Of a stretch of 64,000 nucleotides of DNA, positions 37,013-57,436 are shown piece after piece. Location: positions 288,001-352,000 of the forward strand of contig JAVCBU010000012.1 of the NCBI GenBank assembly GCA_037917685.1, written 5' to 3'. The position numbers were made by a program, and so were the translations under genes. Source of the stretch: Thermoproteota archaeon (lineage in GTDB: Archaea > Korarchaeota > Korarchaeia > Korarchaeales > JAOZGB01). The stretch's first letter is position 1. Each line of letters opens with the position of its first letter. The notes below the pieces were generated by a model, which saw only the letters and a list, made by a program, of their open reading frames with translations, was not told the DNA's origin and searched no databases.

Positions 37013-37849
37013 TCAGGTTTTAATCCCAAGTTCCAGGTTTGCTAGTTCATAGTGTTTTTTAAGGGTTGAGACTGAAACGTGAGTGTAAATTTGTGTAGTA
37101 GCTAGGGAGCTGTGGCCAAGAAGTTCTTGTATATATCTAATATCTACGTTTCTGTCGAGGAGATGCGTGCTAAATGAGTGCCTTAGTTTGTGGGGGGTAC
37201 ATCTTTTCTGCCAATCTGATATGCCGGCCTTTCTTCCAGCTTTTTTAATCATTCTCTGAACATTTAGCGGCCTCATCCTTCGGCCTACCTTGTTGATAAA
37301 TAGGGGCCCGGTTTTCCTCTGCCCTATGTATTGCCGTATTAGATCGGCGGCCTCTTTTGTAAAGAAGGATATACGGTCTTTCCGCCCCTTTCCACCCCGC
37401 ACCCTAACTATTCCCCTTTCGAGATCTAAATCTTCGACGTTAAGGTTGCAAAGTTCTGAAACCCTCAAACCTGAGGTATATAGTAATAGTATAATTGCCT
37501 TGTCTCTTAATCGGCCAGCGGCCTCCACCATTCTCCTTATCTCTTCTGGCGTGAGAACTTCAGGTAGTTTCCTCCCGATTCTTGGAGGTCTTATAGATTC
37601 ATAGTCTGTTCTTCCAGCCCACGAAAGATACCGTCTTAGTACAACGGTATGAATGTATAGGGTTGAAATGTTGTATCCGCTTCTCCTCCTTTCAAGGAGA
37701 TAGTCTTTAATCTTTTCAATACTACAGTCAGCTGGGTCTCGCCCAACTATATTAAGAAAAGTGTTGAGTATGCTTTTGTAGGTCTTAATAGTGTATTTGC
37801 TTTTCCCCTCTAATTCAAGTTCTGCTATGAAGCGCTCTATTCTATTCAT
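37013..37849 (-). CDS. xerA: Tyrosine recombinase XerA (XerC/D family)
   Basis: GLRVSEL, GGKGRKDR, TPHKLRHSF, LLGHSSLATTQIY: all catalytic R-K-H-R-H-Y residues present; housekeeping context. Confidence 0.9.
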   Translation of the reverse strand: MNRIERFIAELELEGKSKYTIKTYKSILNTFLNIVGRDPADCSIEKIKDYLLERRRSGYNISTLYIHTVVLRRYLSWAGRTDYESIRPPRIGRKLPEVLTPEEIRRMVEAAGRLRDKAIILLLYTSGLRVSELCNLNVEDLDLERGIVRVRGGKGRKDRISFFTKEAADLIRQYIGQRKTGPLFINKVGRRMRPLNVQRMIKKAGRKAGISDWQKRCTPHKLRHSFSTHLLDRNVDIRYIQELLGHSSLATTQIYTHVSVSTLKKHYELANLELGIKT

Positions 37850-41695: not shown

Positions 41696-42394
41696 ATGAT
41701 GCCTATCAGAGATGAGAATCCCAGCGGTATTACCCCTGTCGTAACCTACACAATAATTGCAATCAACGTAGCAGTGTTTTTCTGGCAACTTATCTACGGG
41801 CTTGAAAAATCTGTTTACGAACATGGTTTTATACCATATCTAGCTCAAGTTGATATTGAAGGCAGCTTTTACAGGTTTTTAACATCTATGTTCCTCCACG
41901 GAGGTTTTACACATATCTTCGGAAACATGCTTTACCTATACATATTTGGAGACAATGTTGAGGCTGCCTTCGGCAGGGTGGGATACAGCATTTTCTACCT
42001 TGCAAGTGGATTAGCGGCTAGCATCGCACATATGATGTTCAATCTAGGTTCAAGAATCCCTGCTGTCGGTGCTTCGGGAGCCATAAGCGGGGTTTTAGGG
42101 GTATATTTGGTGTTATACCCAAATGCAAACATCATAACCCTTGTATTCTATCCATACGGGTTTGCAGCGACATATAAGATCAGGAGCGTCTATTATTTGG
42201 GTTTCTGGTTTATATATCAACTTATCCCCGCATTTCTGGGTGAAACAACCGGAGTAGCGTACTGGGCGCACATAGGAGGCTTCGTTCTCGGGGTTCTCGT
42301 CGCCTTACCGTTGAGAAGCAAGCTTAGGAGGAGACGCAGACATGTTATGCCTGTACCATGGTATGAGGAGTGGAGATACGAAGTCTACGTATAG
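41696..42394 (+). CDS. Rhomboid intramembrane serine protease
   Basis: FLHGG..HI.GNM, VGASGAISG, AHIGGF. Confidence 0.95.
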   Translation: MMPIRDENPSGITPVVTYTIIAINVAVFFWQLIYGLEKSVYEHGFIPYLAQVDIEGSFYRFLTSMFLHGGFTHIFGNMLYLYIFGDNVEAAFGRVGYSIFYLASGLAASIAHMMFNLGSRIPAVGASGAISGVLGVYLVLYPNANIITLVFYPYGFAATYKIRSVYYLGFWFIYQLIPAFLGETTGVAYWAHIGGFVLGVLVALPLRSKLRRRRRHVMPVPWYEEWRYEVYV

Positions 42395-50511: not shown

Positions 50512-51975
50512 ATGGTTAAGAAGCCGAAGCTTTTGCCTCCCAAGTCTAATTTTCCTGAATGGTTAGACTCAGTAATGTTCCTTGCCGAAATTGCCGACTT
50601 CACATATCCCTTAAAGGGTTGTGGTGTATGGCTTCCATTCGGATGGGAACTTAGAAACAACATATTCAACATTATGCGGAGGCTATTAAAGGAAACAGGG
50701 CACGGTGAGGTGTATTTTCCCCTGCTTATCCCCGAGAGCATATTTATGAAAGAGGCTCACTTCATTAAAGGCTTTGAAGACGAGGTTTACTGGGTTACTC
50801 ATGGTGGTTTAAAGGAACTCGACGTTAAACTCGCACTAAGGCCAACCAGCGAAACGCCTATGTATTATATGTTTTCTAAGTGGATAAGGTCTCACGCTGA
50901 CCTTCCATTAAAAGTGTGGCAACTTGTAAACATGTTTAGATATGAAACGAAAGCCACAAGGCCCATGTTCAGGCTGAGAGAGGTGACTTCATTTAAGGAA
51001 GCACATACAGTGCATGCAACGGAGAAGGAAGCGCTAGAACAGGTAGAGCAGGCTATAGAAATATACAAGAGGTTCTTTGACGAGTTATGTATACCATATG
51101 TAATATCGAAGCGGCCACCATACGACAGGTTTCCAGGGGCAAAGGAAAGTATAGCATTTGAAACAATACTTCCTGATGGTAGAACCCTACAGATAGGTAC
51201 TGTCCACTATCTCGGTCAAACATTCTCCAAAGCCTTTGACATAAAATTCTTGGATAGGGATGGGATTGAAAAGTACGCCTATCAAACCTGCTACGGCGTA
51301 TCAGAGAGAGTGGTAGGTAGCGTCATAGCTCTACATGGAGACGACCATGGCCTAGTATTACCTCCAGACATCGCTCCAGTACAGGTTGTAATAGTCCCAA
51401 TAACATTTAAAGAGATTCCTGGTGTCGAAGAATACAGTAAAAAAGTCTATGAAAAGCTGAAGGACCATTTTAGAGTGGAACTCGATCTCAGAGACAAGAG
51501 ACCTGGGGAGAAATATTATCATTGGGAGGTTAGGGGGGTACCTGTTAGAGTTGAAGTAGGACCTGAGGAGATGCGGAGTAGATTAGCAACATTGGTAAGG
51601 AGAGATACGTTAGAAAGGGTAAAGGTAGAGCTAGACAATATAGTTGAAGAAGTTGAAAAACTATTTGACGATATTAAATCTAATATTAGAAACAAGATTA
51701 CCAACTGGTTCAAGGAAATGGTTAAAAGAGCAGAGACATTCTTATCTCTAACAGGAGATAAGAAGGACGTAGTGTATCATCTCATAGACGAAGATGGGGA
51801 ATTTAAAGGGGGAATAGTAGAGATACCCATCTGTGAAAACGTCGAATGTGAAATCAAGATAAGCAGGTTTATCGATATCTTGGGAGAGCCCTGGGATATG
51901 ACTGAAGAGGCAAGGGGGACATGTATCTGTGGAAGACCAGCAAAGAGAATAGTAAGGGTATCAAAACAGTACTAG
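50512..51975 (+). CDS. proS: Prolyl-tRNA synthetase (archaeal/eukaryal type)
   Basis: LRPTSET, FRYET, FKEAHT, QIGTVHYLGQ, GVSER, HGDDHG, C-terminal Zn site, terminal Tyr. Confidence 0.97.
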   Translation: MVKKPKLLPPKSNFPEWLDSVMFLAEIADFTYPLKGCGVWLPFGWELRNNIFNIMRRLLKETGHGEVYFPLLIPESIFMKEAHFIKGFEDEVYWVTHGGLKELDVKLALRPTSETPMYYMFSKWIRSHADLPLKVWQLVNMFRYETKATRPMFRLREVTSFKEAHTVHATEKEALEQVEQAIEIYKRFFDELCIPYVISKRPPYDRFPGAKESIAFETILPDGRTLQIGTVHYLGQTFSKAFDIKFLDRDGIEKYAYQTCYGVSERVVGSVIALHGDDHGLVLPPDIAPVQVVIVPITFKEIPGVEEYSKKVYEKLKDHFRVELDLRDKRPGEKYYHWEVRGVPVRVEVGPEEMRSRLATLVRRDTLERVKVELDNIVEEVEKLFDDIKSNIRNKITNWFKEMVKRAETFLSLTGDKKDVVYHLIDEDGEFKGGIVEIPICENVECEIKISRFIDILGEPWDMTEEARGTCICGRPAKRIVRVSKQY

Positions 51976-51987
51976 AAATTTTAGGAG

Positions 51988-52006
51988 AAATAAAAAATAA
52001 GGGAGT
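51988..52006 (-). terminator. Oligo-T terminator after S-layer paralog 1
   Basis: The minus strand reads ACTCCCTTATTTTTTATTT immediately after the TAA. Confidence 0.6.
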
Positions 52007-53260
52007 TTAGGGGTGAACGATGATTTCTACGGTGTCGAATGGGTCGTACCTTCCATTACCGTTAACATCCGTCCATTTAAGTATGTAAACGCCACATTTG
52101 CTTAACTCTGATAAGTGATTCCTTATGAAGTTCGCTGCCGCTTCTGTGCCGTATCTTGTGCAACCCTCTACCAGGAAGATAAAGCTTCCATCAGAATGAA
52201 TGGCACCTAAGACAGCATAGTCTTCCGACTTCCATATCGGTTCGTACGTAACTCCATTGTAGATAAGCTTAAATCCGTCCCATGAGATGCCAAGCATGTC
52301 GTTGTAGGCGGTCACATACCTGTTAGCTATAGGACCTCCTACTAGTAAGGTGGACTCTCCAGGTGTGGGTACTGGCTTCTCTACAAGCTGTTTGAGGTGT
52401 CTCTCAAACCTATCCTTCAAACCTTTGTCCGGTGCTCCAGGGGCCACATATCCTACGGTTTTGTCACTTACAAAGAGGAAGTACCCCATTGAAACGATAT
52501 CTGTATTATCTGCTCCTGGGTAACTTAAGGTTATTTCATAGTAGCTTATGTATCCGTTACTCTCCCACTTCCAAGATTTTTCAGTAGCAGTGTCAACATG
52601 AGGAGGTTTCTCCTCGCCGCTATCATGTATAGCCTTTGCTTCGACAAATGTAACGCCGGGGCCTGCGTAGAATGATGGATAGTCTAACCAGAAATCTGGG
52701 CTTTCAAGATGCCACGGATCCCAGAACTTAAACTTCCATGTATCTGGGCCTACCTTCTCCCAGAAGTTGCCGTATGTTGATACTTCATCTCCTTTTGCAC
52801 CTAAGAGCGGCCAGTAAACCAGATATGAACAGTAATATCTGTGGTGCTCGTCGTCAAACCGGAACCCAAGGAACTTAATAGCTAGCCATCTTGTTTCATT
52901 ATCTACTGCAAGTGTATGCTCAGCAGATATCATGTCGTAGATCGTGGCCCCAACGTAGAACAGCCATGTTTCATCCATTCTTCCCGTCATTAATGCTTTA
53001 AAGGCCTCCTCTCTCTCGCTCTTGAATTGTTCCCACTCTTCATCTGTTAATGGTGTCTCACTTCCTATTTCCCCCTTCCATATTTCTTCTCCCACATCGT
53101 ACCTGAACGTATGATTTGCATAGAAGGTTATAGCCCAATACCCGTATCTAATGTACTGTGCTTCAGTTCTCATGACTCTTATAGTGCCTAGAAATAGCCC
53201 TGCAGTCGAAAATGATAGTAATACACATTGCAGGAGCGATATCAACTGTCTACCTGTCAT
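52007..53260 (-). CDS. Secreted protein with C-terminal S-layer-like domain, paralog 1
   Basis: Signal peptide; LLVGGPIAN, EGCTRYGTEAA, WTDVNGNGRYDPFD (S_layer_C-like region plus a Ca-binding-type DxNxNG loop). Confidence 0.75.
   Translation of the reverse strand: MTGRQLISLLQCVLLSFSTAGLFLGTIRVMRTEAQYIRYGYWAITFYANHTFRYDVGEEIWKGEIGSETPLTDEEWEQFKSEREEAFKALMTGRMDETWLFYVGATIYDMISAEHTLAVDNETRWLAIKFLGFRFDDEHHRYYCSYLVYWPLLGAKGDEVSTYGNFWEKVGPDTWKFKFWDPWHLESPDFWLDYPSFYAGPGVTFVEAKAIHDSGEEKPPHVDTATEKSWKWESNGYISYYEITLSYPGADNTDIVSMGYFLFVSDKTVGYVAPGAPDKGLKDRFERHLKQLVEKPVPTPGESTLLVGGPIANRYVTAYNDMLGISWDGFKLIYNGVTYEPIWKSEDYAVLGAIHSDGSFIFLVEGCTRYGTEAAANFIRNHLSELSKCGVYILKWTDVNGNGRYDPFDTVEIIVHP
52020..52093. repeat. 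74-bp inverted repeat (partner 54582-54655, 1 mismatch)
   Basis: The reverse complement matches 54582-54655 except for one synonymous position. Confidence 0.93.
52355..52411. repeat. 57-bp perfect inverted repeat (partner 54264-54320) containing the dyad GTTTGAG-N6-CTCAAAC
   Basis: The reverse complement is identical to 54264-54320; dyad at 52390-52409. Confidence 0.93.
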
Positions 53261-53367
53261 TTTTACCCATAAATTTCCCCTACAATTATTTTTAAAACTT
53301 TAACGTTTAACGATGACTGGATAGTTAAATAATTTAATTTTGTAACCAGTGCCCTACAGTAAACTCG

Positions 53368-53381
53368 AACTTAGCTAAGTT
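53368..53381. promoter_or_regulatory. Perfect 14-bp palindrome AACTTAGCTAAGTT in a divergent promoter region; candidate operator
   Basis: Between the two divergent S-layer paralogs, about 20 bp upstream of the TATA-like TTTTAAG near 53401; TCGA on both flanks. Confidence 0.5.
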
Positions 53382-53438
53382 TCGATTTCGAGACTAAGAT
53401 TTTTAAGCTGCCCAACTAGAAGTGTATCTTTGATAAAA

Positions 53439-54668
53439 ATGAGGCTTTCCGTAAAAGCTACGTTAGTACTCATCGGATCAGCTGTACTACTACTTTCAAT
53501 CGTACCTGCAACCATAACGGAGGAAGCCCAAGAAGGCTGGATATGGAAGGGTTTCTGGGAGATATACTTCTGGAACAATAACACAATAACCTTTAAGAGC
53601 AAGAGAAAAGTGTACTGGGGAACCCTAGGTGAAGCGAGAGAGATAACGGACCAGGAATGGGAGCAGTATAAAGCTGAGCACCAGGACGAGTTTGAGGAGC
53701 TGGCTAGAGGCGCAACATATTACGACGTCTTCCACTACATTGGTGCGGCTATAGAAGATCCTATTTCACAGGAATATACGATGGTTGTACCTGATGAAAT
53801 CCTAGACATGATCGTGTACTACAAAGGCCTGTTCATAGAGGATGAAGAACACGCATACGGCCAAGAATGGAACATCTACTGGCCACCGCTTGGAACAGAA
53901 GACCAAAGTAGATGGTCCAAGGTTTCATCTGATACCGTAGAGTTTATCTTTGTAGACCCCTGGCACTTTGATACTGTAGATGCATGGCTTGACTACCCAT
54001 ACTTCTTCGCCGGGCCAGGCGTAACATTCGTTGATGCTTGGGCTGAACACGACTCTGGTGAACACATAGCCCCCCACCATGACGAACCCAACTTTAAAGG
54101 GTGGGACTGGGAGTCAAACGGGTACATTTACTGCTACCACATAACAATTTCATACAGCCAGTTAGAAAACCTCGATATGTCATCAATGCAGGCAATGCTC
54201 CTCGTATGGAACGAAACAACAGGATTCGTTGCACCAGGAGCTCCCGATAAAGCATTAAAAGACAGGTTTGAGAGACACCTCAAACAGCTTGTAGAGAAGC
54301 CAGTACCCACACCTGGAGAGCCGACAGTACTTGTAGGAGGCCCTATAGCTAACAGATTCGTAACCACCTACAATGATAGGGTTGGAGTCTCCTTCGACGG
54401 GTTCAACCTAATCTATGACGGCGTGACCTACTCCCCAGTATGGCAAAGTGAGGATTACGCAGCTGTCTTCGCTATATGGGACAATCCTGGATGGGTATTC
54501 GTAGTAGAGGGCTGCACGAGATACGGCACAGAAGCAGCGGCGAACTTCATAAGAAACAACCTCGAGGAGCTTGATGCTGGAGGCGTTTACATACTTAAAT
54601 GGACGGATGTTAATGGTAATGGAAGGTACGACCCATTCGACACCGTAGAAATCATAGTAGAGCCATAA
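53439..54668 (+). CDS. Secreted protein with C-terminal S-layer-like domain, paralog 2
   Basis: Same architecture as 52007-53260 with shared motifs DPWH, WLDYP, AGPGVTFV, HDSGE, WESNGYI, VGGPIAN, EGCTRYGTEAAANFIRN; start 53430 or 53439. Confidence 0.75.
   Translation: MRLSVKATLVLIGSAVLLLSIVPATITEEAQEGWIWKGFWEIYFWNNNTITFKSKRKVYWGTLGEAREITDQEWEQYKAEHQDEFEELARGATYYDVFHYIGAAIEDPISQEYTMVVPDEILDMIVYYKGLFIEDEEHAYGQEWNIYWPPLGTEDQSRWSKVSSDTVEFIFVDPWHFDTVDAWLDYPYFFAGPGVTFVDAWAEHDSGEHIAPHHDEPNFKGWDWESNGYIYCYHITISYSQLENLDMSSMQAMLLVWNETTGFVAPGAPDKALKDRFERHLKQLVEKPVPTPGEPTVLVGGPIANRFVTTYNDRVGVSFDGFNLIYDGVTYSPVWQSEDYAAVFAIWDNPGWVFVVEGCTRYGTEAAANFIRNNLEELDAGGVYILKWTDVNGNGRYDPFDTVEIIVEP
54264..54320. repeat. 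57-bp perfect inverted repeat (partner 52355-52411)
   Basis: AGGTTTGAGAGACACCTCAAACAGCTTGTAGAGAAGCCAGTACCCACACCTGGAGAG; dyad at 54266-54285. Confidence 0.93.
54582..54655. repeat. 74-bp inverted repeat (partner 52020-52093)
   Basis: 73/74 identity to the reverse complement of 52020-52093. Confidence 0.93.
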
Positions 54669-54670
54669 TC

Positions 54671-54689
54671 ACTCCCTTTTTTATATTTT
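54671..54689 (+). terminator. Oligo-T terminator after S-layer paralog 2
   Basis: ACTCCCTTTTTTATATTTT, homologous to the terminator of paralog 1. Confidence 0.6.
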
Positions 54690-54745: not shown

Positions 54746-55171
54746 ATGGTGGAAGACGTAATCCATATCCTTACTGGAGTTAGAGATATAAGCCGAGGTG
54801 AAGGATTAGAGCATTTCTTTCTGAAAATTTATAGCCTCCTATTCTTGAGGAGCCTTGGATACACGATGATAATGTTTGAGCCTGAGATCTTCGGGCTTAG
54901 ACCTGACATACTCGCGGTTAAAATATTAGAAGGTCATGCCGAAATAGCGTGGGTTGAATGTGGGGGAATGCACAAGCCCTATGCTGAGGTTAAGAAGGTG
55001 TTGGATAAGTTGAGGTATCTTTTGAGAAGAAAATTAGATGTGAAATACAAGATATTCAACGTCAGCATGAGACGGGTGAACCTTCCCGAGTACGTGGATG
55101 AAATAGAGGTAAGCGATTACGTGATGAAACTATTATACGATATTTATAGTATGTTTAGGCTGAGTGTCTAG
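54746..55171 (+). CDS. Small PD-(D/E)XK-like (restriction endonuclease fold) protein
   Basis: GEGLEH...LGY...FEPE...RPDILAV...IAWVECG pattern. Confidence 0.55.
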   Translation: MVEDVIHILTGVRDISRGEGLEHFFLKIYSLLFLRSLGYTMIMFEPEIFGLRPDILAVKILEGHAEIAWVECGGMHKPYAEVKKVLDKLRYLLRRKLDVKYKIFNVSMRRVNLPEYVDEIEVSDYVMKLLYDIYSMFRLSV

Positions 55172-55195
55172 TTTTATTATTACTCAACAGGGAAT

Positions 55196-56830
55196 ATGAT
55201 ATGTCGGATGAGGCATAATAGACTTGGGTTAGGTTTAGCATTCGCCCTTTTGGGCCTCCTCCTCATTTACAGTCGCGAATATATTTTAGGGGTCTTAGGA
55301 TTATGGTTTATTTTTTCCTTAACTCCATCTTATATTCTTCATTCTAGTTTAAACGACTTGAAATGGAAGATTGCCTTCTCAAGCCTCGTCTTCTTTTTCT
55401 TAACGGTGTTATTGGATAGTCCGTTGGGTCTAATTCTATCAGCAGTTTGTAGTTTTGCCCCATTAAAGTATAATCTGGCTTATCTCTTAAGTAAAAGGTC
55501 AAGTAGAGAAGTCGTAGCAGAGAGTGAAGGGTTAGACGCTGAAAGGGATAAAAAAACTTTTATTATGAGTTTTCAGGCGTTTGCCTCCAAATGGAGGCCT
55601 AGTTTCTATCTTATCTCCGATGGGTATGCCATAGGTGCTAACTTCCTTGAAAGAATCATCTGGTACTTATTGAACATGGGTTTTAAAATGCTTATCATTG
55701 ACCAATATGGCCGCTTTAAGAGACTTGTAGAGGCGCCGAGCACTAAGGGTAGGGTTAAAGTTGTTCCTGTCGCCTCTATAGACCTTTTGGAATATGAAGG
55801 AATTGACATCAGAGATTTTTCTGCGATGGCAGCCTCCCTGCTTCTAGGGATAAATGGTAACCCTCCACTTGGACCGTTGTCGAATTCTATAAGGGTGGCT
55901 GTGAACGAGGCTCCTGGGTTGAAGATCTCATCGCTTGCTTCATCAGACTTGATTGTTGGATACGAGAATGTTAGGGCTGTCTTGGAGGGGATTGCTATAA
56001 AACAAGCCGAGTATGAGGTTAGTAGATTAGAAAACTACATAAATGATGCTCCATCATGCCTTATCATCGATGTTTCAATGTTTAGAGATGCATCTATAAA
56101 GGAAACAGCTACGCTCCTGACTCTTCTCCAGGTCTATAGGCTTTGTATACTAGGAGTCCAGGACAGGGTCACAGTTTCAACCCTCCTTTGGAGTATGGGT
56201 ATACAAGGGTTTAGAATCCAACCCCAGTTTAAGGGTGTTTTGAGAGATCTTATACATGAGATTTCGAGGTACGGGTTAATACTTGGTTATGGTCCAAGTT
56301 TAGATGTTGAATTCTTAGGAGCGGTTAATATGGTACTGATATCTCGGACTGCGGGCTTAGAAGCTAATCTCCCCCTGATAAGGGTTTTGAGTAACATCTC
56401 AAGAGATTTGCCCCAAAAGATAAAGAAACTTGAAGTTGATAGAGTTATAAAAATTGACTGGACTTCGGAGGATGTCGAGGGTGAAGTGGTTATACCTCCT
56501 CCCGTTGAACTCGAAGCTTTGCCTTACATTAGGAGAGAAATGATTGAGGAGGTAGAGGATATTGTAAAGAGGCTAAAGACAACAGGTAACTATGAAAGAT
56601 ATGTTAAAGCTTTAAGCATTGTCAGTAGAGTTGGAAAAATAGCCTCTGGAAAGGCGACAAGTCTTCTCAGAGGTGAGAAGCCACTTAGAATTTTTAATAC
56701 GCTGTGTGAACTTGGACTTCTTGACTGGGAGCCCGAGATTAGATATAGAGGGAAAGGTTTTGAGACAGTTGTTTACTATTTCATTACAAAGAAAGGTCTA
56801 AAAGTCGCTGAAAGACTAGGTATAACTTAA
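55196..56830 (+). CDS. Membrane-anchored degenerate HerA/FtsK/VirB4-like protein with C-terminal winged HTH
   Basis: About 4 N-terminal TM; LIIDQYGRF, LIIDVS, HEISRYGL resemble HerA blocks but there is no Walker A/B; C-terminal LCELGLL...YYFITKKG wHTH. Confidence 0.55.
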   Translation: MICRMRHNRLGLGLAFALLGLLLIYSREYILGVLGLWFIFSLTPSYILHSSLNDLKWKIAFSSLVFFFLTVLLDSPLGLILSAVCSFAPLKYNLAYLLSKRSSREVVAESEGLDAERDKKTFIMSFQAFASKWRPSFYLISDGYAIGANFLERIIWYLLNMGFKMLIIDQYGRFKRLVEAPSTKGRVKVVPVASIDLLEYEGIDIRDFSAMAASLLLGINGNPPLGPLSNSIRVAVNEAPGLKISSLASSDLIVGYENVRAVLEGIAIKQAEYEVSRLENYINDAPSCLIIDVSMFRDASIKETATLLTLLQVYRLCILGVQDRVTVSTLLWSMGIQGFRIQPQFKGVLRDLIHEISRYGLILGYGPSLDVEFLGAVNMVLISRTAGLEANLPLIRVLSNISRDLPQKIKKLEVDRVIKIDWTSEDVEGEVVIPPPVELEALPYIRREMIEEVEDIVKRLKTTGNYERYVKALSIVSRVGKIASGKATSLLRGEKPLRIFNTLCELGLLDWEPEIRYRGKGFETVVYYFITKKGLKVAERLGIT

Positions 56831-57436
56831 CGATTCAACTCGAGACTTATGTATAAACCCAAACACCAATCCAACTAGTAGGCCTGCAGCATGGGCTGCA
56901 ACATTTACGCCAGCCATTCCCATGCCTAAAACCCATATGAGTATAGTAACTATTTCGCTAATTGAGACTTTTCTTGAAATTATGTCTAAACTTAAGACTA
57001 GCCCAACATAACCAAATATTGCCCCTGACGCCCCCACTGTTGGAGTATAAGATGGTAGAATGATTAAAGATAGTATGTCAGACCCGAACAAGGAGGATAT
57101 GTATAGGATAGCTGCTTTAACGCTTCCTACATAATTTTCACATATAGAACCGAAAATGTAGAGCGCATACATGTTAAGAAACAGATGAAGTAAATTGGCA
57201 TGAATAAATGCTGAGGTTATGAGGGTCCAGTATGCGCCTGCTTTAATGTTTGACATACTTAAACCATATTTTAGGGCTATTCCCATATCAACTTGAATGA
57301 AACCATTGATAGATGTTGTTAAAAGATACGTAAATATGTTAGCTGCAAGTATGGCTCCAGTTGTCACATATTCCCTTCTAAGAAGTAAGCTAAAGGCTAC
57401 AAGAGAGAAGGATAAGGCTATAAGGAATCGAAGCAT
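56816..57436 (-). CDS. Rhomboid intramembrane serine protease (second copy)
   Basis: FIHANLLHLFLNM, VGASGAIFG, AAHAAG. Confidence 0.92.
   Translation of the reverse strand: MLRFLIALSFSLVAFSLLLRREYVTTGAILAANIFTYLLTTSINGFIQVDMGIALKYGLSMSNIKAGAYWTLITSAFIHANLLHLFLNMYALYIFGSICENYVGSVKAAILYISSLFGSDILSLIILPSYTPTVGASGAIFGYVGLVLSLDIISRKVSISEIVTILIWVLGMGMAGVNVAAHAAGLLVGLVFGFIHKSRVESLSYT

Follow-up and report, generated by a model that had tools for sequence, protein, structure and literature searches.

How do two old, clearly diverged genes come to share stretches that are identical even at silent sites? The question is raised by genes A and B, paralogs that lie divergent and head-to-head across a 169-bp gap in a 64,000-nucleotide (nt) stretch of DNA from a Thermoproteota archaeon of the Korarchaeota (the window: positions 288,001 to 352,000 of contig JAVCBU010000012.1, here C1). 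The two proteins are identical at 222 of 411 aligned residues (54%), and the genes carry three near-identical inverted blocks, which we call islands 1 to 3. A sequence-only reading of this DNA had proposed that a recombinase acts on a small dyad in the 57-bp block (island 1), flipping the segment between its two copies and exchanging the C-terminal tails of the encoded proteins, with gene conversion independent of any recombinase as an equally valid alternative. Comparison with two related loci decides for the alternative: short tracts converted anew in every lineage keep the islands identical, and gene conversion plus crossover between inverted paralogs, carried out by general homologous recombination much as in the tufA/tufB pair, very probably accounts for the locus as a whole.

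Islands of identity and concerted evolution

Whole-genome BLAST recovers all three inverted blocks that the sequence-only reading had described, and the dyad GTTTGAG-N6-CTCAAAC is present in both copies of island 1 (Table 1). The 57- and 74-nt blocks (islands 1 and 3) have no further match in the entire source genome, and the 50-nt block (island 2) has a single extra one of 23 nt at 96% identity, at 46630-46652 of contig C14, adjacent to where another paralog matches in its C-terminal domain. The divergence claimed for the remainder of the genes is borne out as well: outside the blocks the proportion of differing silent sites (pS) is 0.80-0.84, a level of saturation that makes the duplication old, so the blocks are not relics of a recent one. 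Among codons that specify the same residue in A and B, about one-third are identical outside the blocks, as against 15/19 to 16/18 inside them. When silent codons were shuffled 10,000 times and the longest run of identical codons among same-residue codons was scored, the longest observed runs in the source genome were 19, 13, and 9 codons, and a run of 19 was reached in none of the shuffles, which puts the identical blocks far outside what chance would give. The islands fall where the A and B proteins are identical, and the repeat extends 14 nt beyond the stop codons. The terminators can be called homologous to that extent, the shared downstream part being merely a short C-rich motif followed by a T-run.

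Three loci can be compared, all of them metagenome assemblies. A search for the gene pair at E <= 1e-20 covered 41 genomes, namely, the source genome (G000; a 1.81-Mb assembly, 95% complete) and 40 relatives, and found matches in four; besides G000, the pair itself occurs only in G001, the only other genome of the same genus among those searched (66% complete), and the remaining two matching relatives have distant single-copy homologs. A metagenome scan added one locus, the contig L019, which carries the same gene pair. The gene copies are labeled A0/B0 (G000), A1/B1 (G001), and A2/B2 (L019).

Both G001 and L019 have the pair together with the same three blocks. Scored in 45-nt windows, orthologs (A0-A1, A0-A2, B0-B1, and B0-B2) are 70-96% identical in every window over their whole length, and A-to-B identity outside the blocks is 31-70%; in the block cores, copies within one genome are 98-100% identical, which is above ortholog identity at the same places (0.73-0.96), in all three genomes. 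For islands 1, 2, and 3, respectively, perfect A/B runs measure 57, 17, and 32+41 nt in G000; 66, 55, and 76 nt in G001; and 86, 46, and 80 nt in L019, and in A/B pairs taken across genomes they reach at most 17-31 nt. The places of the islands recur in all three genomes, and their borders differ. In the permutation test, the longest runs of the within-genome pairs (19, 26, and 28 codons) were reached by 0 of 10,000 shuffles, and those of five cross-genome pairs (5-9 codons) are not significant (p = 0.08-0.90).

Site patterns and trees locate the same boundary between what follows the genome and what follows the gene. Among 219 block columns, 30 are the same within a genome and different between genomes, and none separates A from B; among 1008 ungapped columns outside the blocks, three have the genome pattern and 245 separate A from B. 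Trees of the blocks group by genome (support 0.94-1.0), and those of the outside columns group by gene (1.0). Some of the changes common to both copies of a lineage alter the protein: WTD-V-NGNG in G000 is WTD-T-NGNG in G001 and WTD-I-NGNG in L019, and DRFERH in G000 and G001 is DKFEKH in L019. Identity within genomes combined with differences between them thus points to concerted evolution by gene conversion, ongoing after the lineages split. Defining features of tuf-like concerted evolution are found here, in the form of discrete tracts whose within-genome identity exceeds that of orthologs and of clustering at silent sites in a Sawyer-type test. Conversion without a recombinase, which the sequence-only reading had offered as its alternative, is therefore favored by the concerted evolution, the permutation test, and the site patterns alike. 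The ratio of nonsynonymous to synonymous substitution rates (dN/dS), calculated with the G001 and L019 orthologs, is ~0.03-0.05 for A and ~0.02-0.05 for B, implying that both genes are functional and under purifying selection.

Orientation of the two-gene cassette

Do the islands also support crossover? In G000 and L019, the gene order is prolyl-tRNA synthetase (ProRS), A on the minus strand, B on the plus strand, and open reading frames (ORFs) of 141 and 544 amino acids (aa); in G001, read with its flanks in the same orientation, it is ProRS, B, A, and ORFs of 150 and 542 aa. BLASTN of G001 against the window places both flanks in one orientation and the cassette (window positions 51988-54683) in the opposite one, the flipped segment being the whole two-gene cassette of ~2.6 kb. 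Colinearity between L019 and the window extends over all 13.2 kb even though L019 is nearer kin of G001 (89% versus 81%), which by parsimony places the flip on the G001 branch. We take the orientation difference between G001 and G000/L019 as real.

The crossover can be located from what moved with the genes and what stayed behind. Gene-specific sequence up to ~87 nt before the stop travels with the gene, whereas the last four codons (the last ~9 nt or so) and the downstream DNA, with matching T-tracts, stay with the flank: the copies on the ProRS side (A0, A2, and B1) end in ..V-H-P, and those on the distal side (B0, B2, and A1) end in ..V-E-P. The crossover thus fell within the terminal block of 73-76 nt, and the breakpoint interval of 78 nt coincides with island 3. 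In G001 the inversion swapped no more than the final four codons plus the terminators and left the C-terminal domains untouched. The general idea that the blocks can mediate inversion consequently holds: a whole cassette has flipped, but it did so through the terminal block and not through the 57-bp block, at which no crossover is seen in any of the three loci. Inversion breakpoints inside inverted repeats are a feature of tuf-like crossover, the orientation here being read from assemblies; Hughes is said to have described, in 2000, that recombination between tuf genes can also give inversions.

Mechanism and competing explanations

We posit that an old inverted duplication gave rise to two head-to-head genes for lineage-specific secreted proteins, both of which are kept by purifying selection. 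General homologous recombination would then repeatedly overwrite tracts shorter than ~90 nt in one gene with the sequence of its partner at the three islands, without crossover, so that each genome has identical islands in genes that are elsewhere saturated with silent differences. Resolution with crossover would be rare and would produce an inversion; one such event in the ~75-nt terminal island flipped the 2.6-kb cassette in the G001 lineage. The agent is presumably homologous recombination of the RadA type, which would serve conversion and inversion alike. Amino-acid constraint and recurrent conversion may together keep the islands above the minimum homology for strand exchange, and the diverged segments between them may stop extension of the tract or heteroduplex, or conversion there may be selected against.

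The closest described case is the tufA/tufB pair of Salmonella enterica, which consists of nearly identical genes in inverse orientations with mostly contiguous conversion tracts, near-identical over 1185 nt and 762 kb apart (PMC5485169). The likeness lies in inverse-oriented paralogs on one chromosome and in non-reciprocal conversion tracts. In contrast to the tuf genes, the A/B copies stand head-to-head and 170 bp apart, encode proteins of 54% identity, and are saturated with silent differences; only three islands, 46-86 nt in length, still undergo conversion, and their host is an uncultured archaeon, in which the machinery would be RadA-based.

Several considerations weigh against this account. 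The blocks were delimited by within-genome identity, which makes the count of zero sites separating A from B partly circular and leaves the 30 between-genome differences as the informative figure. Only three loci are comparable, every one a metagenome assembly, and the close kinship of L019 and G001 means that the three lineages are not fully independent. Orientation calls rest on assemblies: Logan unitigs, built with k = 31, end at the repeats, and a flip through identical repeats longer than 31 nt yields no novel 31-mers, so orientation is invisible to them. Finally, a recombinase could be encoded on an unassembled element, and 5% of the G000 genome is missing.

Among the competing explanations, the one that fares best, itself improbable, retains homologous recombination and holds that the islands are kept because flipping is useful, with the population continually inverting the cassette or its inner segments at any island. 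If this were so, N1-C2 and N2-C1 chimeras, which join the N-terminal part of one gene to the C-terminal part of the other, would be expected at low frequency together with alternate 3′ ends, the assemblies showing only the majority form, and the locus would shuffle surface-protein tails in an archaeon without a recombinase.

We consider it very unlikely that the pattern is an assembly artefact, in which the blocks would reflect consensus collapse or the G001 orientation would be a misjoin at the terminal repeat. Every one of the three sequences comes from a metagenome assembly, inverted repeats 57-86 nt long can confuse short-k assemblers, and the Logan unitigs of two DNA runs, X1 and X2, break at the repeats; yet the same three blocks occur in three separate assemblies, each with lineage-specific sequence. 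The stretch of the window is present in X1 and X2, possibly the source samples, and missing from a third run; unitigs from the two runs match the window with 0 differing letters, a match that may not be independent if they are indeed the source. The 57- and 74-nt blocks form separate unitigs at ~1.3-1.7x the depth of their neighbors, as fits a true two-copy sequence, and the terminal block of G000 is split by a mismatch into perfect stretches of 41 and 32 nt, which are under the usual final k values. A misjoin at the 57-bp block would make chimeric genes, and none is seen. The name of the G001 contig carries "k127_", presumably a MEGAHIT k = 127 label, and a k of that size exceeds the 76-nt repeat of this genome, which we likewise count against an artefact.

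Equally hard to credit is nucleotide-level selection, under which an RNA or DNA element needed by both genes would keep the blocks without any copying. The blocks recur at matching positions in each of the three genomes, which fits this proposal, as does the presence of a small hairpin-capable dyad in one of them. A fixed element, however, predicts invariance across genomes, and 30 of the 219 block sites, mostly silent, differ between genomes and are identical within each, in all three; such differences are incompatible with simple selection for one fixed nucleotide element. A demand for mutual identity, whatever the sequence, would itself need conversion, and Rfam searches gave no match to E up to 1, save one chance-level match elsewhere.

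There is similarly little probability that the inversion was made not by host recombination but by a mobile-element integrase of relaxed specificity, like Int-pTN3 of Thermococcus. Int-pTN3 is a plasmid-borne integrase of Thermococcales that recombines any two identical segments of about 100 bp, down to 104 bp, and so makes large-scale inversions (PMC5495485); the likeness is that of an archaeal inversion between short identical inverted segments, and the difference is that the A/B cassette shows a local 2.6-kb flip plus clear non-crossover conversion. No integrase beyond the XerA-like gene was found in G000, G001 (66% complete) not having been searched for integrases, and an enzyme of this type leaves the non-reciprocal homogenization of three islands in three lineages unexplained.

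The dyad on which the sequence-only reading relied is perfect only in G000. The site reads GTTTGAG-AGGCAT-CTAAAGC in G001, where the spacer differs and the right arm has two changes, and GTTCGAA-AAGCAT-CTAAAAC in L019, with changes in both arms; the arms no longer pair in either genome, and conservation of the dyad at silent sites is absent, an outcome that the sequence-only reading had itself named as counting against its proposal, yet the block is fully homogenized in both. The presence of the dyad in both G000 copies and nowhere else in the 1.81-Mb assembly could be read as specificity. Perfect 7-N6-7 dyads number 190 in the G000 genome, and 2.1% of random 57-nt G000 stretches hold a perfect dyad of at least 7 nt with a spacer of 3-10 nt; there is thus nothing remarkable about a dyad picked out post hoc in 181 nt of block sequence.

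Nor does a suitable enzyme present itself. The earlier statement that xerA is the only recombinase in the window, about 15 kb away, is accurate: the XerA-like gene lies 14.5 kb from the gene pair and is the sole PF00589 match in the G000 assembly, in which, at 95% completeness, no PF00239 match (serine recombinase) was found either. Proximity is the point in its favor, but the gene is a lone Xer homolog of the housekeeping type, situated among SurE and NAD-biosynthesis genes (its neighbors are surE, a quinolinate phosphoribosyltransferase homolog, and an EF-Tu-family GTPase gene), and no recombinase was found within 14 kb of the invertible segment. Recombinases of the tyrosine or serine class (Rci, Hin/Gin type) drive shufflons and other invertible segments. 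The A/B locus resembles such segments in that its inverted repeats lie within coding sequence and might in principle exchange surface-protein C-termini, and the predicted chimeras would be in-frame because the blocks occupy the same alignment columns. However, N1-C2 and N2-C1 chimeras are absent from all three assembled loci, an A-type N-domain always being joined to an A-type tail, and the sole inversion seen breaks in another block, exchanging four codons. One fixed site does not explain three blocks whose borders vary between genomes. The features that define shufflons, namely, an adjacent dedicated recombinase, conserved core sites, and swapped C-termini with core-site junctions, were looked for and are lacking, and the identical stretches vary between relatives. 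Action of XerA or some other tyrosine recombinase on the dyad, flipping the 1.85-kb inner segment and swapping C-terminal domains, is the least credible of the explanations considered here.

The genes, their surroundings and their wider bearing

Table 1. Features of the A/B locus and of its surroundings, in window coordinates
Feature	Position	Strand	Remarks
Gene A	52007..53260	-	ORF, 417 aa; predicted secreted or membrane-anchored
Gene B	53430..54668	+	ORF, 412 aa; starts at TTG or, three codons on, at ATG
Island 1, A copy	52355..52411	-	57/57 identical; dyad 52390-52409
Island 1, B copy	54264..54320	+	57/57 identical; dyad 54266-54285
Island 2, A copy	52122..52171	-	46/50 identical
Island 2, B copy	54504..54553	+	46/50 identical
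Island 3, A copy	52020..52093	-	73/74 identical; interval containing the ProRS-side breakpoint of the G001 cassette inversion
Island 3, B copy	54582..54655	+	73/74 identical; interval containing the distal breakpoint of the inversion
Shared intergenic region	53261..53429	.	169 bp; probably holds both divergent promoters
ProRS gene	50512..51975	+	Pfam match; conserved flank orienting the cassette
141-aa ORF without known family	54746..55171	+	Conserved distal flank; counterparts of 150 aa (G001) and 141 aa (L019)
XerA-like tyrosine recombinase gene	37013..37849	-	PF00589, 3.5e-48; judged outside the system

Proteins A and B share a layout of a hydrophobic N-terminal segment, a region of ~270 residues, which has no Pfam family match, and a C-terminal domain of ~120 residues. 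Against PF05124 (S_layer_C, "S-layer like family, outer domain"; gathering cut-off 23.9 bits), this domain scores 14.8 bits in A and 16.3 bits in B, both under the cut-off, and the match covers only model positions 112-173 of 177; in A, B, and at least five other secreted proteins of G000, the final 75-110 residues align with the last third of the model. A and B are thus at best distant relatives of the PF05124 domain, and "S-layer domain" is a weak but reasonable reading of their C-termini.

The same C-terminal domain (~110-130 aa, with the motifs GGPxAN, EGCTRYGT, and W-D-NGNG) closes at least eight other predicted secreted proteins of G000, at 32-41% identity. These paralogs are encoded on contigs C1, C4, C6, and C14 (loci L003-L010), and their N-terminal parts are unrelated: those of six scanned paralogs include a C25 peptidase, an M28 peptidase, and a thioredoxin/Omp28-like module, a GIFT/DUF4350-like module is also seen, and a seventh paralog has putative phospholipase-D-like HxK motifs, as judged by eye. 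Only the M28 peptidase fusion among the six exceeds the PF05124 cut-off (25.8 versus 23.9 bits), and four others score 13.8-17.2 bits. The shared domain looks like a lineage-specific module for cell-surface location or attachment that is distantly related to PF05124.

The A/B family proper is narrow, with four relatives among 5.8 billion clustered proteins; of these, P0002 is a B-type ortholog near the L019 copy and P0003 is a partial, distant homolog, and neither is chimeric. The ESM Atlas returned only clusters without names, below 0.9, and full-text searches of the literature turned up no paper on the locus or on the protein family, which has no name to search by. Structure gave no identity for B: an AlphaFold2 model built on a 5-sequence alignment has a mean pLDDT of 61.8, and its Foldseek matches in the PDB, to GLIC channels, LppM, and OST subunits, have TM-scores of only 0.10-0.22, which we regard as meaningless.

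The intergenic region between the two genes is more conserved than their silent sites. Identity is 81-83% when G000 is compared with the relatives and 92% when L019 is compared with G001, well above the silent-site identity (1-pS) of the adjoining genes, ~0.3-0.6, and this excess implies that the region is under constraint. A/T-rich, TATA-like boxes lie ~25-35 nt ahead of each start codon, where the promoters of A and B are probably located, and regulatory sites common to the two divergent promoters may lie in the region. It also contains a small hairpin (53378-53395) followed by a T-run; a promoter/terminator scan flagged only this hairpin and the island 1 dyad, the scan being a bacterial one that does not apply to archaea.

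On the 3′ side of B, positions 54746-56830 hold the 141-aa and 544-aa ORFs, whose order and size are kept in G001 and L019 and which have no Pfam match. Two rhomboid-family protease genes (41696-42394 and 56816-57436) occur within 15 kb of each other, and one of them flanks the cassette region. Other repeats were noticed in the G000 genome. A genome self-BLAST found a 254-nt direct repeat within the window, at 704-957 and 1124-1377 (C1:288704-288957 and 289124-289377), with 98% identity and its copies 420 nt apart. Outside the window, C6:425004-428698 is a perfect 1848-nt tandem direct duplication, which may be real, a circular element read twice, or an artefact, and a 715-nt inverted repeat of 94% identity (C6:47138-47852 and 282426-283140), with copies 235 kb apart, is another candidate pair for conversion or inversion.

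The process that we describe is ordinary and well understood, and the A/B locus is a new archaeal example of it, not a new kind of system. Its value lies in the dimensions that it provides, since it bears on the minimum homology and tract length of recombination in archaea: tracts are shorter than ~90 nt, the islands on which homogenization persists within otherwise saturated paralogs measure just 46-86 nt, and a crossover took place within ~75 nt of identity. Such parameters of archaeal recombination are otherwise known from a few cultured models. The locus also carries a lesson for the interpretation of surface-protein genes, in which inverted identical blocks accompanied by a dyad need not signal a programmed switch.

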